Below are positions 6,685 to 51,212 of a stretch of DNA of 64,000 nucleotides, piece after piece. Positions within the stretch are counted from its first letter, which is position 1. Each line of letters starts with the position of its first letter. Position numbers and translations under genes: made by a program. The DNA comes from a virus. The notes beneath the pieces were generated by a model, which made no database searches, was not told the origin of the DNA, and worked only from the letters and a program-made list of their open reading frames with translations. Location: positions 3,035 to 67,034 of the IMG/VR virus record IMGVR_UViG_3300045988_126226; one strand, 5' to 3'.

Positions 6685-8181
6685 ATGGCTAGCTATACCA
6701 TATCCAGTCTTAGTGAGACTGGTGCTATTTTTGAAGCAACAGACCTTAGTTCCGATAATGTTCAAAGACAAATGGCAGTAACTATAAATGGAAATACTGT
6801 ATGGGGTGATGCAACTACTGGCGTACCTTGGGTGCATGTTCTTGGTTTAAGTCCTGGAACTACTTATGATTATACTGTTTGGTTATAGTATTATACTGGA
6901 GGCCAATGGAATACAGGAGGAATTTGGGATGGCACTCTTACTACCCCAGGATCAAGTGGCGGTGATGGAGGAGATGGGGGCGGATCTGGCAACATTGATC
7001 CAATGTATGCTTGCTATGATGTCACAACTGGAAGTTATATAAATGGTTGGATGCAAGGTAGCTTTGGTATGACTGCTCCTTCTTATGGTAGTAGTTATAC
7101 TTATTTAGGATATTGCCCTGGTAATTCAGAATAGGAATGTTTAAATTATTATATTAGTAATGGTACTACATGGGATCAAGATTCCACTTATAGAGTAGCA
7201 GATTGTAGTTATGTTATATTCTTTTATAGACAAAATTTATCCTATGCTTATATAACATATTATTATAATGGAGGATCTGGTAGTTATAATAATGGATAGC
7301 AATATACTTTTTCAAGCACAACTCAGCCTTGGGACATATATTTAGATACACCTTCACTCTCTGGGTATAATTTTTTAGGATGGACAACAGATAATTCATC
7401 AGCTTATGTAAGTAGTCCTGTGCAAGCATATAATGGTTCAACTTATACATTATATGCTATGTGGTAGCGTATTTATTACTATACTTATATAACCTATCAT
7501 TATAACGGAGGATCTGGTAGTTATAGTGAAGGATAGCAAGTAAGCTATTTAAATGTTAATTCTAGTCGAACTATTACTTTAGACACTCCAACAAAAGCAA
7601 ATTATACTTTCTTAGGTTGGGGAACTAGTTCTTCTTCAGCTGATATTGGCACGCAATTATAGGTATCATCAACAAGTCCTGTGTATAAAACTCTTTATGC
7701 CGTTTGGCGTAGAAATACAATTACTGTAACTTATAATGCAAATGGCGGTTCTGGCGGTCCAGGATCATAGACGGTTAACACCAATTCTTCTTTCAATATA
7801 AATGGATCTAATTATCCCACTCGCAATAATTATATTTTTAAAGGATGGTCTACATCGTCTTCGGCAAAAACTGCAACTTATAAAAAAGGAGCAACACCTT
7901 CAATTTCTACTGGTACATCTAATATAACTTACTACGCGGTTTGGTGGCCCGCGTTTACTTGGAAAGATTATTCCAGAAGTGAAGCAAATACTTTCGCAGG
8001 ATATATAAATACTTATTTAAACAGTTCAATTACTACTATAAATGATACTAATCCCCTACGTTTAGTAGTTTGGTTTAACGCTATAACAACTGCTTTAGGA
8101 AATAATATTAAAGTAGCATCAGGTGATGCTAGTTTTAAAACATAGTTAGATACTTTATTAACCGCATACAACAATTATTAA
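6685..8181 (+). CDS. Flg_new (Listeria-Bacteroides repeat) domain protein, 3-4 repeats; about 8 in-frame TAG; likely virion surface/adhesion protein
   Basis: strong RBS AAAGGAGG; single frame open 6685-8181 if TAG is sense; repeats of YTITYNGGSGSY..GWTT..TLYAMW; TAG falls at the conserved Q of the GS-Q-TV repeat motif. Confidence 0.5.
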
Positions 8182-8285
8182 AATTAATTGGCCTACTGAG
8201 ATTTTCAGTAGGCCAATTTTTTATATTCATAAAGAATATTTTTTTATATTATTTAGAATGATGTAATAAAAGAGGAGGCAATAAG

Positions 8286-8558
8286 ATGTATACTTTAACA
8301 CATCAAAATGGTAAAGTTAATTATGGATTAAAAAAATTCATAGTTGATTCTGTTGAAGATATTGAAAAAATTCCAACAATTTCGTTGCTCCCTGGCAGTA
8401 CTGCTTTTATTCCTAAATCATCAAAATTATATATTTATCAAGATAATAATACTTGGGTTGAATAGAAATCCAATAGTAATAATAGCAGTGGCGGTGGAAG
8501 TACCGAACCTTCTAATCCTGATAATACATACATTTGGGATGGCGGTAGTATTGATTAA
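8286..8558 (+). CDS. hypothetical protein (90 aa, 1 in-frame TAG)
   Basis: RBS AAGAGGAGG then ATG 8286; TAA stop. Confidence 0.4.
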
Positions 8559-8572
8559 GGAGGTGCGTTTAA

Positions 8573-9835
8573 TTGGCTGATGTTTATATGAAATCAAAGT
8601 TCTATTTTAAACGCGGAAAGGCAGCTTCTTGGATTGAGAAAAATATTCTCTTAGGACCTGGCGAGCCTGGTTTTGAAATAGATACTGGTCGATTAAAGGT
8701 TGGCGATGGTATTCATTAGTGGAATAATCTTCCTTATCTTGCAGAAAATGAGATAAAGAATGAAATAAATAAATATTTTAGTGATGTCGCTTATTTTATT
8801 GGATAGAAAGAATCTTTACCTGAAGATCCAAATACTAAAGAAGGTACAATGTGCTTAGTTGGTGAAGATTTTTATATTTATGATGGTGAAAAATGGAGAT
8901 TATTACAAGGTAAATCTTCTCAAGGAACTGTTGAAGTTATAAAAATTAAAGGTGAAAACCAAGGACTACCTGCTGATGAAGTAGAAATTAATGGAACAAA
9001 ATATTCTACTATTGAAGAAGCAATTCAAAATGCTTCTAATAATGATACTATAATTTTGTAGAAAACAGTTAAAAATATTGATATTCCAAAAGGAAAAAAT
9101 ATTAATATTGATTTAAATAATATTAGTATCTTAAATAATGAAGACAATCCAGTTAAAATTAATAATAACGCTTCTTTAATTATTTCGGGAGAAGGATGCG
9201 TTGAATGTAATAAACATGGTAAAGCATCTATTGAGAATAATGGAAATACAACTATTATAAATGGTGAGTATAAACGTTCTATTGATGAAAAAGGTAATGG
9301 ATATTATGTAATAGTAAATCATGGTGAAATGTCTATTTATGATGGAATATTCTCCTCTCCGGGCGGGTTATCTAGTATGATTGAGAATGGATATTACGAT
9401 TATCTTTCTCAATACCATTTAGGCGAGTCCGCGGAATATCCTAAATTAATTATTAATGGTGGTACTTTTATTAATGCTTATACTACTATTAAAAATGATG
9501 ATGCTGGTATTTGTGAAATTAATGGTGGTAATTTTTATGGTATGCTTTATAACGTTGGTAAAAGTTTAACTATAAATGATGGTTATTTCTATACTGATGA
9601 TGGTTATGAAATTATTCAATGTAAAAAGAATAATGATGATATTAATGCTGGTATTTTAACTATTAATGGAGGAATTTTTGAAACTACTTGCGATAAAATT
9701 CTTTCTAGTATAAATAATGCCAAAATTATTATTAAAGGTGGAAAATTTAATAAACCTCTTCCCGAAGAATTTATTGCTTCTGGATATAAACAAAAATTAG
9801 TAAATAATTATTATAATATAATAAAGGAGGGATAA
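8573..9835 (+). CDS. tail fibre/spike protein: conserved N-terminal tail-fibre motif plus C-terminal beta-helix (pectate-lyase-like NGG repeats); 3 in-frame TAG
   Basis: TTG start 7 nt after AGGAGG; N-terminus GPGEPGFEIDTGRLKVGDG.H(TAG)WNNLPY shared with 4 paralogs; repeated INGG.F segments. Confidence 0.5.
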
Positions 9836-9836
9836 T

Positions 9837-10223
9837 ATGGCGTTTAATGTTGTCTATGCAGATAAAAATAAAATTAAATCCAGCATCAAACAAGGTATTA
9901 TTCCAAAAGAAAGTCTAATTTTAACAACTGATGAAAATTAGTCAGAGGCTTATTATTATGATGATGAAGGTAATTTAAAATATATTACCAAAAAGACTTC
10001 TTTTGATTCTATAATTGAAGCTCGCACTTGGATCGCAAAATATGATTATAAGGGTGAAGTAATTTCAATTTTTTAGAATAAACAATGGACTCCCTATTTG
10101 GTTAATGAAGATAATAGCATTACTGAAATTGGTAAAACTTCTTAGTATTCATTAATAGATGGCGGAAATGCTTAATTTTTTTTTATTAAGGAGGAAATTT
10201 TAATATGGCTGGAAATACTTTAA
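9837..10223 (+). CDS. hypothetical protein with probable frameshift near 10138-10145 (homopolymer TTT); 2 in-frame TAG
   Basis: ATG after AAGGAGGG; frame 0 runs into next gene; deleting one T in AAAACTTTC gives ...EIGKTSQYSLIDGGNA then TAA. Confidence 0.3.
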
Positions 10224-11452
10224 AAACCCGTATTCAACTCCGCAATGATGAAGCAGCCACTTGGGTTGAAAAAAACCCTGTGCTGTTAAAAGGTGAAATG
10301 GGTATTGAAGTTGACACTGGTAAAATTAAGATTGGTGATGGGACTAAAGCTTGGAATGAACTTAATTACTCCGGTGTCGATGAGAATGCTATTAAATCTA
10401 TTATTAATAGCAATCGTGATAAAGTTTCTGTCTTAACTCTAACTGAAGGTAAGACCGATGCCGATATGCTAGCAACAATTGCCACCCCTGTTTAGGGAGA
10501 TATGGCTGTTGTTGAAAATACGTTTGTTGAGGGTAAAACTTCTCGTACTGCGTATTTCTATAATGGCGCTAATTGGGCCGCTTTTGATGGTAATTATCGT
10601 GCTGATAATGTGTATTTTGATGACGATATTACTTATACTGTTGCCATTGGTACTCTTGCTCAGCCCTCTGGCTCTGCTAAATTTGCTGCTAAGGGTAAGA
10701 ATGTTGAATAGGTACTCTCTTCTTTAATGGCTCAGGAGGTCAATCCTTCTAAGTCTAATCCTGCTGTATCCTTTACAGCTGAAGGCGGTTTTGGTACTTT
10801 TGAGATTGGTACTAAGAAGAATTTGACCTATACAGCAGCTCTCTCTACTGGTAATTATACCTATGGTCCTGCTACTGGTATCACTGCTCAAACTTGGGAA
10901 GTTAATTGTACTGGTGTTGCTGATAGTAAGTCCACTGCAACTGGTTCTTTTGAGAATATTGTTGCTGAGGCCACTTCCAAGAAGATTACTGCCAAGGCTA
11001 CTTATAATGAGGGTGCGGTTCCTAAAACTAATCTTGGTAATCCTTATCCTGAAGGTAAGATTAAAGCTGGTAGCGCTACTGCAAATTCAAAAACTCTAAC
11101 TGGTGTCCGTTATATGTTTTGGGGCCCTATGTCCAGTGTTGATATGGCTCTGAACTCTGCTAATATCCGCGCGCTTGTGCATAAACAGGCTAGTGGCACT
11201 GGTACTCTTGGTACATTCGGTGCTGGTGCTGGTGCGAAGAAAGTTGTTGTTGCCGTTCCTGCTGGCCGCAAGATTACTAAGGTTCTTATGCCTAGCGCAC
11301 TCAATGCTGATGTTACTGCTCTATTCGTAAAACAAGGTACTCAAGTTGATGTTGAAGGTGCTAATGGTTATACTGCGGCTAAATATGATGTATATGTTTA
11401 TCAGCCTGCTTCTATTGATGCTGGCGAGACTTATGCTGTCACCATCGGCTAA
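10205..11452 (+). CDS. tail fibre protein (N-terminal conserved fibre domain), 2 in-frame TAG
   Basis: RBS AAGGAGG; MAGNTLKTRIQLRNDEAATWVEKNPVLLKGEMGIEVDTGKIKIGDGTKAWNEL; TAA stop. Confidence 0.55.
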
Positions 11453-11475: not shown

Positions 11476-14061
11476 ATGGCTGTTATTATAAATGATGCTG
11501 CTTATATGGGTTTCCCACTTTCTATTAAACGTGGTAATCCTGCTCCTGTTGATACCACTGCGGTATGGTATAGTAAAGCAGAACTCGAAACTTATGCAAA
11601 ATCTGGCGCTACCGCCTATGTTGGTCAGATTTTAACTTTAGTTGCTGATAATAAATGTGAAGCTTATATGATTAGCAATGAGGCTGGTACTCTTGTTAAA
11701 CTTGCTTCTACCACTGCTTCTGGCGATCTTGCTTCTGATGTTTCTACTCTTCAGGGCCAAGTTGCTTCTCTTATTAAAAAAGTTGGCTCTGCTACTCAGG
11801 GTGAAACTGCTGCTACTGGTTTATATGCTCTAATTGAAGCCGCCCAGAAGCAAGCAGATAAAGGCGTCGCTAATGCTAAGACTGCTGATGATAAAGCTGT
11901 TGCGGCATAGACTAATGTAGATGCCCTTGAAGCTGTTGTCGGGACTGATGATACTGCTGGTCTTCGTAAACGTATTAAAACTAATGAAGATGCTATTGGT
12001 GTTTTGAATGGCACTGGTGAAGGTTCAGTTACTAAAGCTGTTAATGATGCTATTAACGATTTTGCTACCAAAGCTACTGAAAATGGTACTATTGACACCT
12101 TTAAAGAATTAGTTGATTGGGTCGCGGGCCATCCCGATATTGTTAATGGTTTAACTGGTGATATTAATAAATTAAAAGCTATTCTTAAAGGATTTGGTAC
12201 TGCTGAAGGCCAATCTCCTGAAGTAAAAGCTTATATTGATAGCGCTATTAAAGCTCTTAAGATTGGCGACTATGCTAAGGCAGCTGATTTAACTACTCTT
12301 GCCGGACGTGTTAGTGTAGTTGAAAAACTTCCTGCAGCTGGTATTACTGCTGAAGATATTGAAAAGTGGAACGCAAAGCAAGATGCTGGTAATTTTGTTG
12401 ATCAATCTGCTTACGATACTAAGATGAAAGCCCTTGAAAAGGCTGATAATGATAATACAACTGCTATTGCTGCTGTGAAAAATACGGCTGATGCTGCTGT
12501 TGTTGCTAACAAAGATATTACCGCTGGTACTGCCACAAAGATTACTTATGATGCCAAAGGTCTTATAACTAAAGGCGAAAATCTTGCTGTTTCCGATATT
12601 CCTACTCTTGGTATTTCCAAAATTGATGGTCTTCAGGATGCTCTTGATAGTAAACAAAATAATTTAACCTTTGATGGTGAATATAATTCTGGCACTAATA
12701 AAGTTGCTACAGTAAGTACAGTTAATACCGCAGTTGATAATTTACGTCATACTCTTGGCGGTGAAGATGGCCAGACTGATGTTGACACTAAAGATAGTGA
12801 AACTATCCATGGTGCAAAGATTTATGCGGATGAAGTTGGTAAGACAGCTAAAGCTTATGCTGACAGCTTAGTTGGTGATACTTCTGCTATTGGTAAGAAA
12901 GTTGCTGCTCTTGAAGGTAAAGTTGATGTTAATAGCGTAAGTAGTGCAATTAACACAGCTAAATCTGAAGCTATTGCAACTGCTGGCACTAATGCTGATA
13001 CTAAAGTTGCTACTGCTAAGACCGCTATCCTTGGCGAAGGACATACTGGTACTGTAAAAGAAGCTTATGAGCTTGCTGCTTCTAAGGCTACTATGGCTCA
13101 AGTCGAAGCTAAGGGCTATGCTGTTAAGACTGAGGTTGACACTGCTGTTGCTGATGCAAAGAAGACCGGTACTGATGCTCAGACTGCTGTTAATACATTA
13201 AGTGATAAGGTTGGCACCATTCCAGCAGATAAGACAATCGTTCAGATGATTGCTGATGCTCAAAATGCTGCTACTTATAATGATAGTGCTGTTAAGGCAA
13301 GTATTAAGACCAATACAGATGCTATTGCTAAATTAAATGGTACTGATACTGTTGAAGGCTCTGTAGCTAAGACTGTTAAAGATGCTGTCGCTGCTGAACA
13401 AACACGTGCAGAAGGTAAAGAACAAGCAAATGCTACTGCTATTGATGGTGTTAAATCTCGTGTTGATGCCTTCCTTGCAGCCGCAGAAGTCGGCGACGCC
13501 GCAGTTGATACCTTAAAGGAAATTCAAACTTATATCACCACACATGGTTCTGCTGCAGATTAGATGGTTAAAGATATCGCGGCTAATAAGAAAGCAGTCG
13601 AAGAGGAAGCTACTCGTGCTAAAACTGCTGAAGGTACTAATGCCACTGCTATTAGTGATGAAGCTACTCGTGCTAAAGCAGCTGAAAAAGCTAATGCTGA
13701 TGCGATCGCTGCTGAGACCACTCGCGCTAAAACTGCTGAAAAAGCTAATGCTGATGCAATCGCTGAATTAAAGAAAGCTGATTATGCTGGTATTACTTCT
13801 GAAAAGATTGCTAAGTGGGATGCTGCTCAAGCTAATGTAATTGAAAAGATTCAGGTTAATGGCACTGAAATTGCAATTAGTGAAAAGATTGTTAATATTC
13901 CTCTTGCTACCGCAGCTCGCGCTGGTTTGATTATTAGCTCTAATGCTGAAAATGCTATTAGCGTTTCTGATACTGGCGTAGCTACTGTTAATAATATAAA
14001 TGTTAATAAATTAGTTCAAACCGCTGGTGATGAACTTATTCTTAACGGTGGAAATGCTTAA
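11476..14061 (+). CDS. long fibrous tail fibre protein (Ala/Thr-rich, 861 aa), 2 in-frame TAG
   Basis: RBS GAAGGAGG; continuous frame through TAG at 11908 and 13561; low-complexity fibrous repeats. Confidence 0.5.
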
Positions 14062-14145: not shown

Positions 14146-15489
14146 ATGGCTAATACAACATTTAATACTCGTATTAAATTAAAGTATGACACTCTGGCCA
14201 ATTGGACTACTAATGAAGCAAAAGTTTTATTAGCTGGTGAAGTTGGTCTTTGTTATGTGCCTTCTGTGACTTCTGGAACTACTACAACTGCTCCTACTGT
14301 TTTATTTAAAGTCGGTGATGGTAAAACAGCTTGGGGAAAATTACCTTGGGGTTCCGGTCTTGCCGCGGACGTTTATGATTGGGCTAAATCAAATACAAAA
14401 CCATCTTATGATTATAGTGAGATTAAAAATACTCCCACTATGACTGTGGATACTAATACTACTTATAAATTAGTTCAAGATGGTACTGATAAACATAAAT
14501 TTACTTTACAAAGTAAAGAAAAGAATAGTGAAAATTGGGTTTCAGTATCTACTATTACTATTCCAGATAACAACAATAACCAAACTATTACTGTTGGATC
14601 TACTTCCTTTGGAACAAATGATGCTGTAAAGTTAGTTGCTGGTGATGGAATTACTATTACTCCTGATTCAACTGGAAAAACAATCACAATTACTGCTGGT
14701 AAAGTTGCTAATGCCACTCATGCCGATAATGCAACTAATGCTACAAGTGCTAATAAAGTAGCTAATGCTTTAACTCTTCAAGTTGGTGGTACTACTAAAG
14801 CTACATTTGATGGTTCTTCTGCGAAAACTTTTAATATTACCGCAGGAGATCTTGGTCTTAGTTCTGCGATGCATTTTATTGGCGCTGCTACTGTTGCTAT
14901 TACCGAAGACTCTAAAGTTGATCCAAAAATCACTGGTTATACTTTTGCTAATGCTCAAAAAGGCGATGTAGTTCTTTATAACCATTTAGAATTTGTGTGG
15001 GATGGCACTAAGTGGGAAAAACTTGGTGATGATACTTCTTACGCTTTAAAGACTATTACTGCTACTGCTACTGATGATGATGTAGTAGTTTTAACTGGTA
15101 CTTCTGGTTCTAACGGCGTTACTTTTGATGCTAAGCACGCTAAAAAAGGTCCGACTGGTGGCGCAACTAAGGGCGCAACCGCGAACGTAAGTGTTTCTGG
15201 TTATGGTGCTTCTGGTTCTATCAAAGTTCCAAAAGTTATAGTTGATGAATATGGTCATACTACTGGCTTAACCGAACAAACGTTAACTATTACAATGCCA
15301 AGTGCGCAGACTCTTCCTGCAGCGGGAAGTGTTGCTCCTAAAAATCTTGGAACTGCCACTGTTGGTACTTCTGCTAAGTATGCTCGTGAAGATCACGTTC
15401 ATAAGATGCCAACTTTAGATGAAATTGGTATTAATACCAATGCTAATTATGTTATCTTTGATTGTGGAACTTCTACAGTAAATATCTAA
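14146..15489 (+). CDS. tail fibre protein paralog (447 aa)
   Basis: N-terminus MANTTFNTRIKLKYDTLANW..GDGKTAWGKLPW shares the fibre N-domain; RBS GGAGG. Confidence 0.5.
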   Translation: MANTTFNTRIKLKYDTLANWTTNEAKVLLAGEVGLCYVPSVTSGTTTTAPTVLFKVGDGKTAWGKLPWGSGLAADVYDWAKSNTKPSYDYSEIKNTPTMTVDTNTTYKLVQDGTDKHKFTLQSKEKNSENWVSVSTITIPDNNNNQTITVGSTSFGTNDAVKLVAGDGITITPDSTGKTITITAGKVANATHADNATNATSANKVANALTLQVGGTTKATFDGSSAKTFNITAGDLGLSSAMHFIGAATVAITEDSKVDPKITGYTFANAQKGDVVLYNHLEFVWDGTKWEKLGDDTSYALKTITATATDDDVVVLTGTSGSNGVTFDAKHAKKGPTGGATKGATANVSVSGYGASGSIKVPKVIVDEYGHTTGLTEQTLTITMPSAQTLPAAGSVAPKNLGTATVGTSAKYAREDHVHKMPTLDEIGINTNANYVIFDCGTSTVNI

Positions 15490-15492
15490 TTA

Positions 15493-15528
15493 AAGGCTCT
15501 CTTAATTAAGAGCCTTTTTCTTTTTTTG
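15493..15528 (+). terminator. rho-independent terminator
   Basis: AAGGCTCTCTTAATTAAGAGCCTT then T-run. Confidence 0.65.
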
Positions 15529-15750
15529 GTCGAATTCAATATATTAACGTTTCCAAAAAATTAATATATAATGTAGATAGAAAATTTAAGTTTGAAATTG
15601 ATAACTTAAAATCTACAAATATATATATTCTTGGTTTTACTCTTTTGGAAATGATTATTGAGAAAACTATTTTTTTAAATGGTGTTACTTCTAATTATAC
15701 AAAAGAGGTAACACCATTTTTTTTATTTCTTAAAAGAAAGGAGATAATCA

Positions 15751-16542
15751 ATGAAAATATTATTACAAAATAAAAATATTGTTCTTGCTAATAATAGTTT
15801 AATTTCTATTAATAGTGATAATATCACGGAGAATGGTAATTTAGTAAGAATTACAATTCCTGAGACCCCTAAAAAAGGTTCTATTATAAATATGAACTTA
15901 GATGGAACCGAGAGATAGTATAGAGTATTGAATGTTAATGGAAATGTTTGTAAAGTATTAGGAATGTTTGATGATTTAACGAGTAAATATAACAGTACAA
16001 GTATGACTACTACTTTTGGAAGCACTACGGCTCAGAAATATGAAGGTTCTACTTTAGATACATATTTGAATACGACTTGGTATAATACACTATCAAGTGA
16101 AGCAAAGAATGCTATTGTACCAGAAAATGTGGTTCAGTATTGTTATAAATACTATGGCAAATCCGATACACCTAATACTCCAACTTACACATATTAGTAT
16201 CAATATAACTGGTCTAATTCAAACTATGAAAATGCTGACGATGTAGGTAATGTTGTAGTAGGTAATAGAAATATATTTGTCTTAGATTTAAAAGATATTT
16301 TTGATTATATTGGTAAAGTATGTATTACATCTGATGAACTAATGATAATGTTCTGGAATAGTACAACTAAAGTATCTAAATATCTACAGTTGCGATCCTC
16401 TATTTCCGCCCTTTCTGACTATGCTTGGGTTGTGATTGGCGGCGGTGGTAATTTGAGCAGTGATAGTGCTACTCTTATTCATGTCGTGCGGCCCGCGCTT
16501 AATCTTGATATGTCCAAAATCCAGTATACACTTGTATCTTAA
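15751..16542 (+). CDS. hypothetical virion protein (264 aa, 2 in-frame TAG)
   Basis: RBS AAAGGAGA; one frame open across TAG at 15916 and 16195. Confidence 0.4.
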
Positions 16543-16556
16543 GGAGAATTCTTAAT

Positions 16557-16928
16557 ATGAAAAGTTTATTAAAAATAAATAATTCTTTAGTGCGCGCGAA
16601 AGTTGCTCCTGACCCTCCTATTGCTCCAAAAGAAACATGGGTGATTAATGATACTTATTCTTCTGCCATTGAATTTACTGTTTCTTCGTTAAATTTTATC
16701 TCAAATGGGAAGAATTTTACTTCAATAGCAATTCGAATTGGCCCTATGGGTTCAGCTTATATCAAGTACAATAATACAACAGTAAATAATATTATGGTTA
16801 ATACTCTAGATACAGGTATAAGGGGGACAGCGTCTTGGATCAATTCTACTTACCGCACTATCACATTTTTAGAGCCCCCAACTGGTGACCTGCTCACCTG
16901 GCTCCAAGCTAATGCAGTAAAACAATAA
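16557..16928 (+). CDS. hypothetical protein (123 aa)
   Basis: RBS AAGGAGAA; TAA stop. Confidence 0.4.
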   Translation: MKSLLKINNSLVRAKVAPDPPIAPKETWVINDTYSSAIEFTVSSLNFISNGKNFTSIAIRIGPMGSAYIKYNNTTVNNIMVNTLDTGIRGTASWINSTYRTITFLEPPTGDLLTWLQANAVKQ

Positions 16929-16953
16929 AAATTTTTAAAGAAAGGAAAATACT

Positions 16954-18048
16954 ATGGCTAATAAAACATACCAAGGTCGTATAGTCCAAAAACATGATAG
17001 TTCTGCGAATTGGGCGAAAGCGACTAATTTTATTCCTTTAAAAGGCGAAATTATCATCTATGATGATTTAAAGAAAATAAAAATTGGCGATGGAACAACT
17101 AAGGTTAATGATTTAGATTTTAGTTCAAGTAATGGACTCCCTGAAGGCGGAACCGCAGGTGATACTTTAGTAAAAGACACTGACGGCGGAAAATGGGAAA
17201 CTCCGGTTGAAGCTACTCTTGTTTCTCTTCCAACAGGTATTTTAAAGAGTGATGGTATTACTATTAGTAAGGCAATCGCCGGCACTGATTATGCGACTGC
17301 GCCTAATAAATATACTTTTACAGTGACCAGTGCAACGCAATCAGTTTTTACTATTCCATTTGATTTTGAAGATAGTGGTGCTTTAACAGTATTTTATAAT
17401 GGTGTTATGATGAAAGAAACTGAGAACTATACAATTTCTGGTAAAACAATTTCTTTAGTAGGCTTTAATGCTGAAAAAGATGATTATATCACTGTTATGG
17501 GCATCGAAGGAGTAGCTTCTATTAATGTTGATGAAAAAGTTGCAATAATTCAAGAAGCGGTTTCAAAAGCAGAAACTACTATTGACACAAAAGTTAATAA
17601 AGCTTTATCTACTATTGATAATAAACTTTCTACTATACCTGATGATGTAACTCAAGCTGTTTATAAAAATAAATCTAATATAATGACTGCAAATGGTAAA
17701 ATTACTATGGATAATTCATATACACCAAGTGCGAATGGAGATATAGCAACAAAGAAATATGTAGATAATGCAACCCCAGCAACATTTACCGCCTCTAAAG
17801 CTGGTACAGTACCTGCTTCAGGTGGAGGAACTGCAAAATATCTACGAGCAGATGGTACATGGAATGTTGTCCCAACAACTCCTGTGATAGGAACATCTAC
17901 TTCATATGCTATTTATATTGGAACAACAGCTCCTGCTTCAGGTACAACGCCACTCCTTTGGATTGATACTACTTCTTCTACTGGATTTCTTAAATATAGA
18001 AGCTCTAATACCAGTGCCTGGACCGCCGTCCCTGTCGCTTGGAGCTAA
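16954..18048 (+). CDS. tail fibre protein paralog (364 aa)
   Basis: N-terminus MANKTYQGRIVQKHDSSANWAKATNFIPLKGEIIIYDD..IKIGDGTTKVNDL. Confidence 0.5.
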   Translation: MANKTYQGRIVQKHDSSANWAKATNFIPLKGEIIIYDDLKKIKIGDGTTKVNDLDFSSSNGLPEGGTAGDTLVKDTDGGKWETPVEATLVSLPTGILKSDGITISKAIAGTDYATAPNKYTFTVTSATQSVFTIPFDFEDSGALTVFYNGVMMKETENYTISGKTISLVGFNAEKDDYITVMGIEGVASINVDEKVAIIQEAVSKAETTIDTKVNKALSTIDNKLSTIPDDVTQAVYKNKSNIMTANGKITMDNSYTPSANGDIATKKYVDNATPATFTASKAGTVPASGGGTAKYLRADGTWNVVPTTPVIGTSTSYAIYIGTTAPASGTTPLLWIDTTSSTGFLKYRSSNTSAWTAVPVAWS

Positions 18049-19855: not shown

Positions 19856-21372
19856 CAATTATAACTCCCTCGAATATTAAAACAGGAGATATTTTAAATT
19901 GTCCTTATAGTGGAACTTATAAATAGATAATTCTTTTGCCCGGGAAATATAAATTTGAATGTTGGGGCGCTCAAGGTGGAGGTAATTCTTCAAGCCTTGG
20001 TGGCAATGGAGGTTATAGTATAGGAGTAATAACATTAAGCAATCAACAAAATATTTATTTATATACTGGCGGGGCCGGAGGAAATGCTATTGCTGGTTTT
20101 AATGGAGGCGGAAGCGTTCCTTCTTCTTCGTATATTTCTGGTGGCGGAGGTGGCGCTTCTGATATTCGTATTGGATCAAATTCTCTTTATGCTCGTGTAA
20201 TCGTTGCTGGTGGTGGCGGTGGCGGAGAAGGTGAAGCGGCTGGATATTATGGAGGGGCTGGTGGAGGTTCCTCTGGAATAAATGGTCGTGGATATGGATC
20301 ATATGGAGCTGGTATGGGTAGTTCTCAAACTGCAGGAGGATCTAGCGCTTATGGAGGAACTAATAATATAGGAATGTCTTTTTCTGCTTCTTCTTTTGGA
20401 TAGGGGGCAAGTATAACAATTGCTTCATGGTCTGATAGGGGATTTATAGGAGGCGCAGGGGGTGGCGGCTGGTATGGTGGAGGAGCTGGTGGAGCTGTCA
20501 GTGGAGGCGGTGGAGGTTCTGGTTATATCTACACTTCATCAACAGCTTCTAATTATCCATCTGGATGTCTTCTAAATTCTTCTTATTATTTAGCAAATGC
20601 TCAAACTATTGTTGGTGATACTGCATTTACTTCTCCCACAGGGGTGAATGAAATTGGTCATACTGGTAATGGATATATTAGGATTACAGTAATAGAAGCT
20701 AAAAATAATTTATCTATATATATTAAAAATAACGCCTGGAAAGAAAACAATGAAATTTTATTTAAAAAGACAAATTGGATAAATCACAAAGATATTTATA
20801 TGAAATTTAATCCATAGTCTTTACTGCCGAGTGGATATACTGCATTAGAATATATAGAAAGTACAGGAACACAATATATTGATACTGGATTAACTGTAAA
20901 TAAAACTGATTCATATGAAATGATTCTTATTGCTCATTTAACTAATAATGACAATTGGGCAGGAGCCAATAGTTATTTACAATTTCAAGCAAAAATAGGA
21001 AATAATAAAAAAAGCAAAATAGATATTAAATATATAAATAAAATTGAGACAATCTTTGTTGATGACCAATAGGTTAGTTCAACAGATTGGAGCACTTCTT
21101 ATAATGGGACAAATGTAAAACTTGGTATATTTAGACTCGGAGATACAAATAATACTTGGTATTCGTAGACAGGTCAAAGTGGTAAACTTTATTCCTGCAA
21201 AATTTTAAATAATAATAATTTAATACGTAATTTTGTTCCTTGCAAAAATGCATCAGGAATTTTAGGATTATATGATGCAGTTAATAATGTGTTTTATACT
21301 AATGCAGGAACAGGTACTTTTACGGCTGGTCCAATAGCAACTGCATCTTGGGTGAAAATAGGAAATTTATAA
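19837..21372 (+). CDS. Gly-rich tail fibre protein (511 aa, about 5 in-frame TAG), TTG start overlapping the previous gene
   Basis: AAAAAAGGAGG then TTG 19837; poly-Gly/Ala/Ser region; C-terminal domain paralogous to 18533..19855. Confidence 0.45.
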
Positions 21373-38572: not shown

Positions 38573-39322
38573 ATGAGTTTAATTGATTTAAGTGGTTAGA
38601 AATTTGGACGTTTAACTGTATTATATCGAGATATAGAAGAAGAAAAAAAGAAAAAAGATAGAAGTGCTATATGGAAATGTAAATGTGATTGTGGTAATTT
38701 TAAATCAGTGGTAGGGAAAGATTTAAGAATTGGAAAAACTCAATCTTGCGGATGTCTACAAAAGGAAAGAACTAGTAAAATAAATAGCAGTCAATTAATT
38801 GGAAAAAAATTTGGAAAACTAACTGTAATTTAGTAGCTTCCTTCAAAAAATCATAGAACATATTGGTTATGTAAGTGTGATTGTGGAAATACTTGTGAAG
38901 TATGTGCTAGAGAACTGAACCAAGGAGATACTAAATCTTGTGGTTGTTTATTTTCTAAAGGAGAATACAAAATAGCTACTATTTTAAATAAATTATAGAT
39001 TGCTTATAAAAAAGAATATATTTTTCCAAACTATAAAAATGCCAGATTTGATTTTGCTTTATTCGATAAACAAAATAAAATCTTTTGTTTAATTGAATAT
39101 GATGGAGAATAGCACTTTTTAGAAAAAGTGACAAATTCAGGATGGAATACTAAAGATAGATATGAAAATATTGTTCATCCTAAAGACATAGAAAAGAATA
39201 ACTATTGTAAAGAAAATAATATTCCTTTATTAAGAATACCTTATTATGATTATGAAAAATTAAATGAAAATTATTTAGAAAGGGAAATAAAAAAATGTAT
39301 AGAGCGTATGTTACAAAAGTAA
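38573..39322 (+). CDS. homing-endonuclease-like protein (zinc-finger repeats plus DUF559/Vsr-like nuclease), 5 in-frame TAG including a TAG-TAG pair
   Basis: RBS AAAGGAG; IDLSG(TAG)KFGRLTVL, IWKCKCDCGN, YWLCKCDCGN, EYDGE(TAG)HFLE, PLLRIPYY. Confidence 0.5.
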
Positions 39323-46703: not shown

Positions 46704-48089
46704 ATGCCCGCTATTATTTCATTTATCCTTCCGGCAATTCCTGTAGTTCTTATTGCGCTACTGGTAATTTTCATTTTCCTCAATGGTTATGTAAAGGCTC
46801 CGCCTGATATGGCTTATATCATCAGTGGTGTCCATAAGAAACCTCGAATTCTTGTTGGTAAAGCTGGCTTGAAGATTCCTTTCTTCGAACGTCTGGATAA
46901 GCTGGCTCTTGGCGCAATTCAGATTGATGTAAAGACCGGATCTGCGGTCCCTACTGCCGAATACATTAATGTTCGTGTTGATTCTACGGTTTCTGTTCGT
47001 GTAGGTAGAGATCCTGAAATGATTGCCCTCGCCGCTCAGAACTTCCTTAACGTAGGCCGTGATGAAATTTCTCGTAAGATTAACGACCTTCTTGAAGGTA
47101 ATATTCGTGAGATCGTCGGTCAGATGAAGTTGACTGATATGGTTAGCGATCGTAAGCTGTTTAGTGAGAAGGTCCAGGAGAACGCAGTTCCTGATCTGGC
47201 ACGTTATGGTCTTGAGTTGATTACCTTTAACGTTCAGAACTTCTCTGATGATAATGATGTTATCACTAACCTCGGTATTGATAATGTCGCTCAGATTAGC
47301 AAAAACGCGGCAATCGCTAAGTCTAATGCGGAACGCGAGATTGAGGTCGCTCGTGCGGAAAATGCTAAGCAGTCTAATGACGCTAAGGTTAAGGCCGCTG
47401 AGGAAATCGCAATCCGCAATAACGATCTTGCTATTAAGCAGGCTCAGTTGAAGCAGGAAGCTGATACTAAGAAAGCTCAGGCAGAGGCAGCCGCTGGCAT
47501 TGAGTCTGAAAATCAGCGTAAGCTCAAGGATGTTGCTGCAACTAATGCAAATATCGCAAAGGCTGAGCGTGAAGCTGAACTGAAGCAAAAGGAAATCGAG
47601 CTTAAGGAATACGAACTGACTGCATTGGTTCGTAAGCAGGCTGATGCTGATAAGTATGCTGCGGAAAAAGCTGCTGAAGCAGACCTGATTCGTCGTCAGA
47701 AGGATGCTGAAGCTAAGGCTTATGAGATCGAGCAGGAAGCAAAAGCTATGCGTGCTCGCGCTGAAGCGGAAAAGTTCGCAGCCGAGCAGAAAGCTGCTGG
47801 TATTGCGGCCGTTGGTGAAGCTGAAGCCACAGCAATCGACAAGAAAGCAGAAGCACAGAAGAAGATGGGTGAAGCCTCTATCATTGAAATGTATTTCAAT
47901 GCAATGCCTCAAATCGTGGCAAATGCGGCAGCCCCTCTTACCAATGTAGATAAGATCGTCCAGTATGGTGATGGAAACTCTGCTCGTCTTGTAAAGGATG
48001 TTATGGGTTCCGCAAACCAGGTCATTGAAGCAATGTCTGAAAATGGTATCGACATTAAAGAGATGCTTACAAAGGCATTAAATAAGTAA
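46704..48089 (+). CDS. SPFH/band-7 (flotillin/YqiK-like) membrane protein with C-terminal Ala/Glu/Lys-rich coiled coil (461 aa)
   Basis: RBS AAGGAGAA; N-terminal TM helix then VKAPPDMAYIISGVHKKPRILVGKAGLKIPFFERLDKL...GLELITFNVQNF; EAEKFAAEQKAAG repeats. Confidence 0.5.
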   Translation: MPAIISFILPAIPVVLIALLVIFIFLNGYVKAPPDMAYIISGVHKKPRILVGKAGLKIPFFERLDKLALGAIQIDVKTGSAVPTAEYINVRVDSTVSVRVGRDPEMIALAAQNFLNVGRDEISRKINDLLEGNIREIVGQMKLTDMVSDRKLFSEKVQENAVPDLARYGLELITFNVQNFSDDNDVITNLGIDNVAQISKNAAIAKSNAEREIEVARAENAKQSNDAKVKAAEEIAIRNNDLAIKQAQLKQEADTKKAQAEAAAGIESENQRKLKDVAATNANIAKAEREAELKQKEIELKEYELTALVRKQADADKYAAEKAAEADLIRRQKDAEAKAYEIEQEAKAMRARAEAEKFAAEQKAAGIAAVGEAEATAIDKKAEAQKKMGEASIIEMYFNAMPQIVANAAAPLTNVDKIVQYGDGNSARLVKDVMGSANQVIEAMSENGIDIKEMLTKALNK

Positions 48090-48096
48090 TTTAAAT

Positions 48097-48133
48097 AGAC
48101 ACTATGATTTATTTCATAGTGTCTATTTTTTTT
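48097..48133 (+). terminator. rho-independent terminator
   Basis: AGACACTATGA-TTTATT-TCATAGTGTCT then TTTTTTTT. Confidence 0.75.
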
Positions 48134-48264: not shown

Positions 48265-48293
48265 TTGCAAAATCAAAAAAATTTTGCTATAAT
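48265..48293 (+). promoter_or_regulatory. promoter (TTGCAA -35 variant)
   Basis: TTGCAAAATCAAAAAAATTTTGCTATAAT. Confidence 0.5.
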
Positions 48294-48318
48294 TTATATT
48301 AAAGAAAGGATGAATAAA

Positions 48319-48771
48319 ATGTCTCTATCCGAAAAAGATGTTTTACTTTTAAAAATTAAAGTTTCTAAAGAGTTAGAAAATGGTATTTTATTTGATGACA
48401 ATGAATTGATTTTATAGTTAAATGAAATTTCTGATATCGAATATCAAGAAACTATTGCAATAATTTTTTATAATATTCAAAATTTTGAAAATCTTAGAAA
48501 TTTAGAATAGATTGACAAATTACAAGATTTCATTAATAAAATTAGTTATCTAAAAAATAATACTCAAGTTTTAACTGCTATTGATTATCTATTTTTAGAA
48601 GTAAAGTTAGATTCAGACACAAAAGAAAATAATATAGAATTCTTTAAGAATTATAAAATAAAAGAAAATAATTCTTTAAGATATTATTCTTTATTAAGTA
48701 GCATATTTATTAAATATCAATTATTTAACAAATTAGATGAATTAGAAAATATTGTAAAAAATTTAATGTAA
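48319..48771 (+). CDS. hypothetical protein (150 aa, 2 in-frame TAG)
   Basis: RBS AAAGGATGA; single frame across TAG 48415 and 48508. Confidence 0.35.
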
Positions 48772-48785
48772 GGAGGACATAACAT

Positions 48786-49547
48786 ATGGCTAATTGTACT
48801 ACATAGGGTTGTGTCGGAACTTGCTTTGTAAGCTGTAGTAATGGATGTGACCATGGTTGTGGCGGTACTTGTTCTCTGTGTGAAACTTGCGGCACTAGCC
48901 AATGCCAAGGAAGTTGTTCAGGAGACTGTGATGGAAATTGCTCTGGATGCGGAGGAGTTTGCCAAGGAAGTTGTTCAGGAGACTGTGATGGAAATTGCTC
49001 TGGATGCGGAGGAGTTTGTAGTAATAGTTGTTCAGGCGGATGTGATGGAGGTTGCTCTGGATGTGGCGGTTCTTGCAGTACCGATTGTAGTGGAAGCTGT
49101 TCTGGCGGATGTGTTGGATGTAGTGTTAGTTGTCGCACCGATTGTAGTGGAAGCTGTTCTGGCGGATGTGTTGGATGTAGTGCTAGTTGTAGGCATGACT
49201 GTTCTGCTTGTACTGGTAATTGTACGGGAGGCTGCGATAATGGATGTACCACTTCAGCTAATGTAAATCTTTATAATTCTATTAATTTAAGAATCGTTTT
49301 ATATGCTGCTGATATTGCAAATATTTATACTATGTTAAATAAAGAATTATCTAGGCGTGGATATAGTACTTTACCTACAAAAGTTTCTTCTAACAGTAAA
49401 GTTAATACAAACTTAAAAAATGAAATATTCACAAATATTTCTAAAATGTAGAACACTTCTTATAATGGAAATGTCTGTACTAAATCTGAGATGCAAAAAG
49501 CAATTACTGCTTTAAAGTCTTTATATTCTAAAATTTTAAAAAGTTAA
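48786..49547 (+). CDS. Cys/Gly/Ser-rich tandem-repeat protein (CSGDCDGNCSGCGG repeats), 2 in-frame TAG
   Basis: strong RBS TAAGGAGG then ATG 48786; 60-bp DNA tandem repeats; about 45 Cys in about 160 aa. Confidence 0.45.
48903..49198 (+). repeat. coding tandem repeats (two roughly 60-bp units, each duplicated)
   Basis: 48903-48960 is nearly identical to 48963-49020; 49081-49138 to 49141-49198. Confidence 0.7.
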
Positions 49548-49573
49548 TTTATAAGATAAAAAGGAGAAAAATA

Positions 49574-49882
49574 ATGAAAACAATTACAGTAAATGCTAAT
49601 AATGTAGAATTAAATGATAAATTAGAACGAGCTTATCAAGATCTTCTTGCTCGTCAAAGTATTATTACTTATATGATGAATAGCACTTCATTTAATAATA
49701 TGGATACTGATAATTATAAAAGATATCATCAAGAATACGTTGAAAAATTTATTGAATATGATAAAATTAGAAATAAAGTTGGAAAATATTATGATTTAGA
49801 AAAATATGGTAATAATGCCTATTGGAGTATTGACTTCCAAGCAAAAATTATTACAATAACAATTAATGATAATGCTGAATGA
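49574..49882 (+). CDS. hypothetical protein (102 aa)
   Basis: RBS AAAGGAGAAAA. Confidence 0.35.
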   Translation: MKTITVNANNVELNDKLERAYQDLLARQSIITYMMNSTSFNNMDTDNYKRYHQEYVEKFIEYDKIRNKVGKYYDLEKYGNNAYWSIDFQAKIITITINDNAE

Positions 49883-51171
49883 GACGTAAATTCGAATAGT
49901 ATAGTGATACAATTCAAAGATTATATCCAGAACTATGGAAAAATGAAAGCGATAAAGTTTTTGATATAACTTTACAGGTCACTGACGCTTGTAATTTAAG
50001 ATGTAGTTATTGTTATCAAACTTGTAAAAAAAATCATTTAATGGATTTTGAAACAGCTAAAAAATATATTGATATGTTAATAGTAAATCCTTAGAAAAAT
50101 GATTACTTTGACCCAGATAATATTATAGGTTTAGTCTTTGATTTTATTGGTGGAGAACCTTTTTTAAATTTAGATTTAATAGATAAAGTAATGGATTATA
50201 CAATTTCTAAATTAATTGAAATGAACAGTCCATTAATTTATTTTACAAGATTTTTAATTTGTACTAATGGAACATTATATTTTGATCCAAAAGTACAAAA
50301 ATTTTTAGATAAATATAAGCAATGGCTATCTGTTTCTATTAGTATTGATGGTAATAAAGAATTGCATGATGCTTGTAGAAAATTCCCTGATGGGTCAGGT
50401 AGTTATGATATTGTTGTAAAAGCAATAAAAGATTGGCGTAAAAAAACCGGAGAATATCCTTGTTCAAAAATTACTTTATCTCCTGATAATGTTATGTATT
50501 TAAATGATGCCGTAAAAGCTCTTTTAGACATAGGATTTACTTCTATATTAGGGAATGTAATTTTTGAAAAAGGTTGGACTTTAGAACACGCCAAAATTTA
50601 CTATAAACAATTACAAGAATTAGGACAATATCTCCTTGATAATAATTTAGAAGAAGATGTATATATTTCATTTTTTGAATATCCAGATTTGAAATTATTT
50701 AGGCCAAAAGATTGGACTAATAAAGATGATCTATAGAATTGGTGCGGCGGAAATGGAAGTATGATTGCTATGAATTATACTGGTAATTTATACCCCTGCT
50801 TACGATATATGGAAGATGCTCTGGGCGATTCCGTCCCACCTCTTATTATAGGAAATGTAAATAAAAATGAAATAGCAACAACAGAAAAACAAAAACAATT
50901 AACAAAAGAATTAAAAGCAATTAATTCTTATACTCAATCTTCTGACGAATGTCGTGAATGTCCTATTGCTAATGGTTGTGCTTGGTGTCAAGCATATAAT
51001 TATCAAGATACTGGAATTCTTAATAAAAGAGTTACTTATATTTGTCCTATGCATAAAGCTCGCGCTCTTGCCAATATTGAATTTTGGAATAAATATTATA
51101 AAAAACATAATATAGACGAAGAATTTCCAAATAATATGAAGCAAGAATGGATAGATGAATTATTAAATTAA
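49879..51171 (+). CDS. radical SAM enzyme with C-terminal SPASM-like Cys cluster (430 aa, 3 in-frame TAG)
   Basis: ATG overlaps the upstream stop (ATGA); DACNLRCSYCYQ CxxxCxxC motif; C-terminal WCGGNGSMIAMNYTGNLYPC ... CRECPIANGCAWCQAYN. Confidence 0.5.
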
Positions 51172-51174
51172 AAT

Positions 51175-51212
51175 AAAGGCGAAAGTATAATGCTTTCGCC
51201 TTTATTTTTTTG
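51175..51212 (+). terminator. rho-independent terminator
   Basis: AAAGGCGAAAG-TATAATG-CTTTCGCCTTT then ATTTTTTTG. Confidence 0.7.

Follow-up and report, generated by a model that had tools for sequence, protein, structure and literature searches.

A probable CXXX-repeat peptide maturation system carried by a large gut phage

Between positions 48265 and 51208, the window (the whole stretch of 64,000 nucleotides of viral DNA analysed here) probably encodes a phage version of the system that matures CXXX-repeat peptides (NCBIfam TIGR04114, TIGR04115 and TIGR04116); the phage is a large one from the gut. Taking assignment, mechanism and role together, we favour a reading in which the radical SAM enzyme of this phage-borne system puts multiple thioether cross-links into the Cys repeats of a neighbouring protein, and this protein then becomes a late, surface- or tail-fibre-associated component of the virion. 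The CXXX-repeat system was reportedly defined through comparative genomics by Haft and Basu in J Bacteriol in 2011. The family is already curated in NCBIfam, Pfam and PHROGs; a literature search on the family names, CXXX repeats, phage radical SAM enzymes, thioethers or tail fibres found no relevant experimental or descriptive paper and no characterised TIGR04115 member. New findings on the family are that it is mainly phage-borne, that its substrate is a modular protein and not a short peptide, that the small partner protein appears to be obligatory and is sometimes fused to the enzyme, and that the cassettes tend to lie in tail-fibre modules.

Layout of the candidate cassette

The features of the unit are listed in Table 1. 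The preliminary description of this DNA had concentrated on the Cys-rich gene and the enzyme gene and overlooked two items: the small ORF that separates these two genes encodes a third component, which is conserved, and a fourth ORF lies upstream in the same transcription unit. Promoter-like consensus matches such as the one at the head of the unit are no commoner in this AT-rich DNA than in shuffled sequence. In the window, the cassette is flanked by the SPFH gene on one side and by PhoH and lysin genes on the other, and the tail-fibre cluster is located approximately 27 kb away. A DNA similarity search against GenBank phages gave no match.

Table 1. Features of the candidate cassette and its boundaries (positions in the window)
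Feature	Position	Strand	Basis or detail
Terminator-like hairpin closing the upstream SPFH gene, 5′ boundary of the unit	48093-48128	+	15-pair stem, then T-run
Promoter-like site TTGCAA-N17-(TG)TATAAT	48265-48293	+	consensus match only
First gene of the unit, 150 aa (153 aa if the start is at 48310)	48319-48771	+	two in-frame TAG; 150-aa orthologue in loci L005-L007
Cys-rich CXXX-repeat protein, 253 aa	48786-49547	+	252 homologues; phrog_6085 match; in-frame TAG at 48804 and 49449
Cys-repeat core, residues 4-154, 40 Cys	48795-49247	+	contains both 57-bp tandem arrays
Conserved helical "handle" domain, about 100 aa, E..RR motif (E187, R190, R191)	49254-49544	+	conservation
Small partner protein, 102 aa, divergent TIGR04116 relative	49574-49882	+	full-length profile alignment, E = 0.084
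Radical SAM/SPASM peptide maturase, 430 aa	49879-51171	+	TIGR04115 match; in-frame TAG at 49897, 50092 and 50737
CX3CX2C motif C38, C42, C45 (CNLRCSYC), SAM-binding [4Fe-4S] cluster	49990-50013	+	invariant in five aligned homologues
SPASM region C289-X12-G-X4-C307, C358-X2-C361-X5-C367-X2-C370, C389	50743-51045	+	seven Cys invariant
Terminator-like hairpin ending the unit	51170-51208	+	18-pair stem, then T-run

The product of the first gene had no match in the family profile searches. In most loci of the family an ORF of 145-200 aa adjoins the Cys-rich gene, and this position is conserved across loci; the first gene may be the window's version of this ORF. BLAST clustering, hhalign and iterative HMM searches found no homology between its 150-aa product and the 145-200-aa ORFs adjoining Cys-rich genes elsewhere.

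With TAG read as a sense codon, the Cys-rich gene and the enzyme gene each form one ORF of the full length given in Table 1, and the earlier claim that both use recoded TAG is borne out by their in-frame TAG codons. The window encodes a tRNA with the anticodon CTA (5414-5503), and the TAG positions align mostly with Gln in close relatives (20 Q, 8 T, 3 K). In-frame TAG codons are common to the tail-fibre and endolysin genes, and none are present in the gyrB, PhoH and phosphoesterase genes of the window. Since this TAG use is common to the cassette, tail-fibre and lysin genes, we infer that the cassette genes are late genes.

The radical SAM/SPASM enzyme and its small partner

The enzyme scored 405.8 bits (E = 2e-121, cut-off 350) against TIGR04115 ("radical SAM peptide maturase, CXXX-repeat target family"), with residues 30-402 aligned to positions 4-359 of the 359 profile positions. 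On this profile evidence it belongs to TIGR04115; it also matches phrog_1802 (E = 9e-66). A radical SAM enzyme with a CNLRCSYC motif and a C-terminal SPASM-like Cys cluster had been described before, and both motifs are indeed present with invariant cysteines, all seven of the SPASM region being conserved in five diverged homologues. The Pfam Radical_SAM profile was matched with 42.1 bits against a cut-off of 29.5. The SPASM profile gave 20.8 bits, just under its gathering score of 21.5, but the seven SPASM cysteines are all present. A grouping with QueE-like enzymes, which had been named as an objection, does not hold, since a score above the TIGR04115 cut-off places the enzyme in a SPASM peptide-maturase family.

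The next-best families are formers of thioethers. The PapB-type ranthipeptide maturase profile (NF047865) reached 194.3 bits against a cut-off of 340, and the substrate in the window has CX3C units without a fixed Asp/Glu. The SCIFF maturase profile (TIGR03974) reached 133.8 bits against 425 and aligned from profile position 79 onward; SCIFF substrates are six-Cys peptides of approximately 45 aa, whereas the window substrate has 253 aa and 41 Cys. The anaerobic sulfatase maturase profile (TIGR03942) gave 77.9 bits against 349, and no sulfatase was found among the neighbouring genes of the cassette. The closest solved structure is CteB (PDB 5WGG, E = 9e-22), the maturase of the SCIFF peptide thermocellin, which forms a Cys-to-Thr S-C(gamma) thioether and shares with the window enzyme the radical SAM core and a SPASM domain that holds two auxiliary clusters. 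CteB carries its own RRE, of approximately 95 aa, at the N-terminus. The alignment starts only at CteB residue 97, and the RRE is therefore absent from the window enzyme, which has the separate 102-aa partner instead (fused to the enzyme in some phages).

This partner aligned over the whole length of TIGR04116 ("CXXX repeat peptide modification system protein"), with 13 bits, well under the cut-off of 50. Among 43 members of the partner family, which was collected from 80 loci, five match TIGR04116 (best E = 1.4e-6), which is the only family to recur. The stop codon of the partner gene overlaps the start codon of the enzyme gene (ATGA), and the two genes are, as read from the sequence, translationally coupled. 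In three loci (L050, L056 and L061) the partner is fused to the N-terminus of the radical SAM enzyme. The structure predicted for it combines one strand with a helical hairpin and a beta-hairpin and does not resemble PqqD.

The Cys-rich protein and the family in other phages

The repeat core contains 40 of the 41 Cys of the protein, with 29 CxxxC, eight CxxC and two CxxxxC spacings. The preliminary description was right about the Cys-richness and the tandem repetition, but it had given the number of Cys as about 45 and the period of the near-perfect DNA repeats as 60 bp, where we find 57 bp (19 aa). The array at 48903-49063 has 2.8 copies with 89% matches, copies 1 and 2 being identical, and the array at 49080-49190 has 1.9 copies with 98% matches. 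Orthologues are 196, 215, 234 and 253 aa long, in steps of 19 aa. Residues between the repeat cysteines are mostly S/T, G and G/S/T, and D, N, T and S are all present; no acceptor residue between the cysteines is conserved in the window repeats.

In an AlphaFold2 model of the 215-aa orthologue P0002, which is not the window protein, the repeat core is disordered (pLDDT <50) and the handle is folded into four helices (pLDDT 75-90). A fold search with the handle domain against the PDB returned nothing with E <1. The handle is N-terminal in 28-32 of 82 phage homologues and C-terminal in 27, and Cys cores are as long as 583 aa with 126 Cys. The substrate is built from two modules: a Cys-x3 repeat core that varies in length, and the helical handle, approximately 100 aa long, which can be placed at either end. 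The Cys-rich protein has neither a leader nor a signal peptide; it starts with MANC, the first Cys being residue 4. TIGR04114 matched it with 14.8 bits (cut-off 20), and PF27846 (tSAM_targ_Cxxx_rpt) is recorded on many of its homologues, found with E-values down to 1e-25.

A CxxxC-rich ORF is located on the same strand within approximately 2 kb of the enzyme gene in 76 of 80 IMG/VR loci, and 79 of the 80 have a member of the small-protein family, usually abutting the radical SAM gene. Both are also found in most of the 24 genome loci with an enzyme at least 33% identical. Among 56 loci with more distant radical SAM/SPASM enzymes, in contrast, the Cys-repeat pairing occurs at most once, as a borderline case, and the small protein not at all. 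The neighbourhood comparison, which had been proposed earlier as a check, thus revealed that the pairing is specific, and such a strict linkage argues for an enzyme-substrate pair. The family is mainly phage-borne, with at least 80 IMG/VR loci compared with approximately 24 of 185,579 species genomes in the same search. None of the cultured GenBank phages has the system; a TIGR04115-like enzyme was found there only in two uncultured faecal "Bacteriophage sp." records, and tblastn of one Cys-rich homologue against phages gave no match.

Phage cassettes usually adjoin tail-fibre genes. Around 67 loci, the commonest flanking PHROG annotations are tail fibre, tail collar fibre, virion structural protein and baseplate wedge, and the prophage gene order is baseplate wedge, Phage_tail_fib, radical SAM gene, Cys-rich gene, more genes, holin and lysin. 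Cultured bacteria with the system include Bacterium D16-76 (L116), which has a handle-plus-Cys protein, the small protein and the radical SAM enzyme, and Tissierella pigra WCA3-693-APC-4 (L108). The Cys-rich gene and the adjacent ORF of approximately 150 aa have been duplicated together inside tail modules. One locus (L049) encodes a fusion of the Cys repeats with two ALK_LTK_GRD domains, which match phrog_1589, as does the gene at 20314-21372 in the tail cluster of the window. In another (L001), NifU and ferredoxin genes adjoin the cassette.

Compared with the CXXX-repeat system as curated (TIGR04115 maturase, TIGR04114/PF27846 target, TIGR04116 accessory), the window has an enzyme above the cut-off, a target with Cys at each fourth residue, an adjacent accessory of approximately 90-100 aa and the three genes on one strand. 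It differs in that target and accessory score below the curated cut-offs and in the extra ORF of approximately 150 aa adjoining the target. Phage targets have 200-800 aa and the handle but no short leader or signal, whereas the bacterial precursors seen have 85-115 aa and carry leaders or TAT-like signals.

Possible chemistry and role of the product

In the mechanism that we propose, the handle would dock the substrate onto a complex of the small protein and the enzyme, the small protein taking the place of the recognition domain (RRE) missing from the N-terminus of the enzyme. The enzyme would cleave SAM reductively and then abstract a hydrogen atom from one of the residues that separate the cysteines; the sulfur of a neighbouring Cys would be joined to that carbon, and the reaction would be repeated unit by unit. 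A disordered Gly/Ser/Cys chain would thereby become a ladder of small thioether rings, oxygen-independent and stable to reductants, and the modified component would withstand the proteases and the reducing conditions of the anaerobic gut.

That the modification would be a thioether is extrapolated from the relatives of the enzyme, which itself scores well below the cut-offs of those families. Acceptor residues known in related enzymes are Asp, Asn and Thr (PMC8326336). Freyrasin, the ranthipeptide made by PapB, has six Cys-to-Asp S-C(beta) thioethers. In this system, one SPASM enzyme modifies a repeated Cys motif iteratively (PMC8326336; PMC9413430). PapB represents the second-best family match, albeit under its cut-off, but the motif in PapA is CX3D, whereas position i+4 in the window is another Cys, and the window substrate is approximately five times longer. 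NxxcB forms a Cys-to-Asn S-C(beta) thioether in the NxxC motif of NxxcA, with donor and acceptor a few residues apart and very small rings (PMC8326336). This is the ring geometry that a Cys-x3 repeat would need, but NxxcA is a short streptococcal peptide with a single bridge, unlike the window repeat protein.

Gene context and domain fusions suggest a role in the virion or the tail fibre, and the product might harden such a part. The PHROG label of phrog_6085, "unknown function", counts against a virion protein, as does the distance of approximately 27 kb between the cassette and the tail-fibre cluster in the window. The product could instead be a released RiPP-like molecule, with the handle acting as a long leader or follower and the modified Cys core freed at lysis as a bacteriocin, signal or host-manipulating factor. 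We consider this unlikely, but several observations point to it: every characterised relative of the enzyme matures diffusible peptides (PMC8326336), a handle at either end recalls the logic of leader and follower, and in the window the cassette forms a unit complete in itself, at a distance from the tail genes. Short leader-type precursors (MSYDSKI...) or TAT-like signal peptides are seen in the bacterial members, implying that their products are free or exported. On the other hand, a classical RiPP cluster has a short leader, a leader protease and an exporter, and none of these was found in the operon or its flanks, where no peptidase or ABC-transporter domain is encoded. The great length of the longest cores, the recurrent tail-fibre neighbourhoods, the fusion of Cys repeats to glycine-rich or discoidin-like modules and the joint duplications inside tail modules also argue for a virion component. 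Were the product released, the gut microbiome would have in it an unusual RiPP encoded by a phage.

We give a still lower probability to a chemistry other than thioether formation, in which the Cys repeats serve as ligands for metal or Fe-S clusters in the manner of a metallothionein or scaffold, or in which Cys is converted by formylglycine-type oxidation or to a dehydro residue. The lack of a conserved acceptor and the metallothionein-like composition, with Cys at each fourth residue and Gly/Ser between, would fit this, and a relationship to the anaerobic sulfatase maturase can be detected; however, the scores for this and other families are far lower than those for the thioether formers and also far under the respective cut-offs, and the strict linkage between the enzyme and the repeat protein speaks against it. 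The NifU and ferredoxin genes beside one cassette are compatible with metal binding, but could equally serve the clusters of the radical SAM enzyme itself.

If the favoured reading is true, a thioether ladder would link RiPP enzymology to virion architecture and would supply a naturally occurring scaffold for the enzymatic stapling of peptides at very high density. Extended to a fuller picture, in which phages of strict anaerobes make a surface or tail-fibre part rigid by tens of thioether rings, an oxygen-independent and reductant-proof stand-in for disulfides, using before lysis a phage radical SAM enzyme with a detachable recognition subunit and varying the part by whole 19-aa repeats, the proposal becomes tentative, and we would rather doubt than expect that all of it is right. 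In that case the protein would be the first known virion structural protein matured by a RiPP-type radical enzyme. The capsid of HK97 is stabilised by an isopeptide "chainmail", in which Lys-Asn isopeptides form autocatalytically between subunits. If the structural reading is right, both are virion parts stabilised by irreversible covalent links, but the window system would use a dedicated radical enzyme and intramolecular thioethers.

There is next to no chance that a low-complexity repeat has produced the Cys-rich ORF as an artefact of an alternative frame and that the enzyme has some other target: three frames are open over 48725-49266, among them a 141-aa ORF on the plus strand and a 175-aa ORF on the minus strand, but in eight close relatives the variable columns of the repeat region are concentrated at the third codon position of the proposed frame (46, 46 and 99 columns for positions 1, 2 and 3), copy-number changes comprise whole 19-aa units, and the C-terminal domain is encoded in this frame too. 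The artefact, which the preliminary description had named as a possible refutation, was rejected on the codon-position variation and the 252 homologues. These have 25-80% identity and the same Cys periodicity as the window protein. Because of the third-position variation, the AGGAGG ribosome-binding site and the homologues, the other two open frames are regarded as the artefacts, and the Cys-rich ORF as a real, conserved gene.

The cysteine-rich protein and its reading frame

When TAG was read as a sense codon, four consecutive genes bounded by two strong terminator-like hairpins were found.

Features of the four-gene unit
Feature	Position	Strand	Remark
Terminator-like hairpin	48093-48128	+	5' limit of the unit
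Promoter-like site TTGCAA-N17-TGnTATAAT	48265-48293	+	
150-aa ORF	48319-48771	+	first of four genes
Cys-rich protein, 253 aa	48786-49547	+	AGGAGG site upstream
102-aa ORF	49574-49882	+	third of four genes
Radical SAM protein, 430 aa	49879-51171	+	ATG overlaps stop codon of the 102-aa ORF (ATGA)
Terminator-like hairpin	51170-51208	+	3' limit of the unit

The preliminary description had reported 60-bp tandem repeats and about 45 cysteines for the second gene. Tandem DNA repeats and a Cys-rich composition are indeed present, but the period is 57 bp (19 amino acids) and 41 cysteines were counted, 40 of them within residues 4-154, spaced as 29 CxxxC, 8 CxxC and 2 CxxxxC. The repeats form two arrays, one at 48903-49063 (2.8 copies, the first two identical) and one at 49080-49190 (1.9 copies, 98% matches). 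Close orthologues are 196, 215, 234 and 253 amino acids long, in steps of exactly one 19-aa unit. In the family as a whole, S/T, G and G/S/T predominate at the positions separating the cysteines; the window protein adds D and N.

An alternative-frame artefact had been considered for this ORF and is refuted. In the repeat region of eight close relatives 99 variable columns fall on codon position 3 and 46 each on positions 1 and 2, a ribosome binding site (AGGAGG) is present, and the 252 Cys-rich homologues returned by a search share the periodicity as well as a conserved domain outside the repeats that is read in this frame. The proposed frame is real.

An AlphaFold2 model of the 215-aa orthologue (P0002) has a disordered repeat core (pLDDT below 50); its C-terminal ~100 amino acids fold into a four-helix domain (pLDDT 75-90), for which no fold match was found in the PDB. 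An HMM of this domain, here called the handle, located it N-terminally in 28-32 and C-terminally in 27 of 82 distinct phage Cys-rich proteins. Since the handle occurs at either terminus, the substrate consists of a conserved handle and a variable Cys core in interchangeable order. Other modules are found as well: the protein of one viral locus (L049) joins its Cys repeats to a pair of ALK/LTK glycine-rich domains (Pfam E = 2.9e-97) that match phrog_1589, as does the window tail-cluster gene 20314-21372, and the L076 protein has a discoidin-like domain, weakly matched, and resembles a tail-protein PHROG. Unlike the phage substrates, bacterial precursors of the CXXX-repeat system are 85-115 aa long, with a short leader (MSYDSKI...) or a TAT-like signal (SRREFFK). 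Such signals (SRREFFKK..) are borne by the Cys-repeat precursors beside TIGR04115-like enzymes in three Bacteroidales genomes (L105, L110, L111), which suggests export after cytoplasmic modification.

The radical SAM enzyme and its partner

The proposed radical SAM enzyme with a SPASM-like Cys cluster was confirmed: it passes NCBIfam TIGR04115 ("radical SAM peptide maturase, CXXX-repeat target family") with 405.8 bits (cut-off 350). Alignment with five homologues (38-42% identity to the window enzyme) shows no variation in the CX3CX2C motif or in the seven SPASM cysteines. In the Pfam profiles, Radical_SAM was recovered (42 bits) and SPASM, with 20.8 bits, fell 0.7 short of the gathering score. 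All other families scored far below their own cut-offs, among them PapB (194 bits, cut-off 340) and the SCIFF maturases (134 bits, cut-off 425). Identity as an anaerobic sulfatase maturase was rejected (78 bits, cut-off 349). Among solved structures, CteB, a SCIFF maturase that forms thioethers, comes closest (5WGG, E = 9e-22). The similarity covers CteB from residue 97 onward; the window enzyme therefore lacks CteB's N-terminal peptide-recognition domain. Three homologues of ~795 aa (L049 6792-9191, L082 2362-4737, L086 6843-9233) carry an intein-like insert directly after the last Cys of CX3CX2C (C|LSGDT..., C|LVAGT... and C|LTGDT..., respectively).

The 102-aa ORF matches TIGR04116 ("CXXX repeat peptide modification system protein") weakly and over the full length (E = 0.084), and a database search with it returned close homologues only. 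When the ORFs of 80 related viral loci were searched with iterated HMMs, 79 of the loci proved to encode a homologue (90-140 aa), whose 3' end as a rule meets or overlaps the beginning of the radical SAM gene. TIGR04116 is matched by five of 43 diverse members of this partner family (best E = 1.4e-6) and is the only family that recurs. At three loci (L050, L056, L061) a single ORF encodes both proteins as a fusion, with the partner domain N-terminal to the enzyme.

Distribution, genomic neighbourhood and possible role

IMG/VR was scanned with the enzyme alignment and the best 80 of at least 262 relatives (37-99% identical) were kept. A CxxxC-rich ORF (168-816 aa, up to 126 Cys) lies on the same strand within ~2 kb of the enzyme gene at 76 of these loci, the exceptions being L074, L078, L079 and L088. 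Applied to 185,579 species, each represented by one genome, the scan recovered ~24 loci at 33% identity or more, from Clostridia, Bacteroidales and Aminicenantes; most of them have a Cys-repeat ORF, the small protein, or both. At 56 loci with more distant radical SAM/SPASM enzymes (31% identity or less), only one borderline Cys-rich ORF and no small partner protein were found. The suggested pairing of Cys-rich protein and enzyme thus stands up to the neighbourhood comparison.

Clostridial prophages have the order baseplate wedge, Phage_tail_fib, radical SAM gene, Cys-rich gene, ~150-aa ORF, ~125-aa ORF, further genes, holin and endolysin, and some have two or three Cys-rich paralogues, each adjoining a ~150-aa ORF. 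At most loci the Cys-rich gene has an ORF of 145-200 aa beside it; homology among these ORFs or to the 150-aa ORF of the window could not be demonstrated. At 67 loci the closest flanking proteins with a length of 250 aa or more were annotated with PHROGs, the commonest being tail fibre, tail collar fibre, virion structural protein and baseplate wedge, plus endolysin. In the window, as in its close relatives with contigs of 177-197 kb, the cassette is located between an SPFH/flotillin-like gene and PhoH plus lysin, ~27 kb from the tail-fibre cluster. The SPFH/Band 7 membrane protein directly upstream (461 aa, 46704-48089) keeps this position in L009, a more distant phage (204-kb contig). There (6888-10624 and 15236-17590), the ~150-aa ORF and the Cys-rich gene have been duplicated together, the two pairs flank one enzyme gene, and a second complete set of small protein, enzyme and Cys-rich gene follows ~5 kb downstream. 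At L001 the cassette is closely followed by genes for a NifU-like protein and ferredoxin (11890-12626), and upstream of it is another radical SAM gene (594-1790), unrelated to the first; they may be phage-encoded support for Fe-S enzymes.

The cassette family is already catalogued (NCBIfam TIGR04114-04116, Pfam PF27846, PHROGs 1802 and 6085). At the sequence level, the comparisons establish TIGR04115 membership, three-gene linkage, coupled translation and fusion of partner and enzyme, and a modular substrate. The products of the nearest characterised relatives contain thioethers from Cys to Asp, Asn or Thr, made at C(beta) or C(gamma), or sactionine links, made at C(alpha) (PMC8326336). If the window enzyme acts likewise, it would bind one Cys sulfur after another to a carbon in a residue close by, giving a chain of small rings, and the handle would dock the substrate onto the partner-enzyme complex. 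From the gene context, the fusions, the lack of a leader, protease or exporter, and the TAG codons common to tail-fibre and lysin genes, we infer that the product may be a virion or fibre part, as the preliminary description had suggested. A released RiPP-like product is a plausible alternative to such a part and would agree with leader/follower logic and the exported bacterial versions. Some other chemistry, for instance binding of metal or oxidation of Cys, is a less likely possibility.

In the literature searched we found no description of or experiment on the family, nor an earlier description of its predominance in phages, of a handle able to sit at either repeat end, of partner-enzyme fusions or of the tail-fibre gene association; no cultured phage in GenBank carries the cassette. 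These four features make the system directly testable.

TAG recoding and other features of the genome

In the window, which belongs to a large AT-rich phage genome, all genes lie on the + strand, many contain in-frame TAG codons, and 13 tRNA genes are present. One, with anticodon CTA (5414-5503), is a class-II-like suppressor tRNA of 90 nt with an extra arm of ~19 nt; ARAGORN calls it Pyl, yet the TAG positions of the cassette align mainly with Gln in close relatives (20 Q, 8 T, 3 K). Public gene calls for orthologues also place Q at TAG. Recoded TAG may mark late genes; in-frame TAG occurs in cassette, tail-fibre and lysin genes and is absent from gyrB, PhoH and phosphoesterases. Three endonuclease-like genes (36227-37018, 38573-39322, 56127-56876) are among the TAG-richest (5, 5 and 3 TAG), and TAG recoding is therefore not limited to structural and lysis genes. 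Only the third is annotated (GIY-YIG/NUMOD homing endonuclease).

Two very long antisense ORFs, 30725-33202 (-; 825 aa) and 46758-47912 (-; 384 aa), oppose an 832-aa gene (30761-33259) and the SPFH/flotillin-like gene, respectively. Both regions have raised G+C (0.38-0.41) and no TAG codons, and the ORFs are probably compositional artefacts. An 861-aa fibre-like gene (11476-14061) contains a 54-bp tandem repeat (13606-13766; 3 copies, 79% matches) encoding EATRAKTAEKANA-type coiled-coil units.
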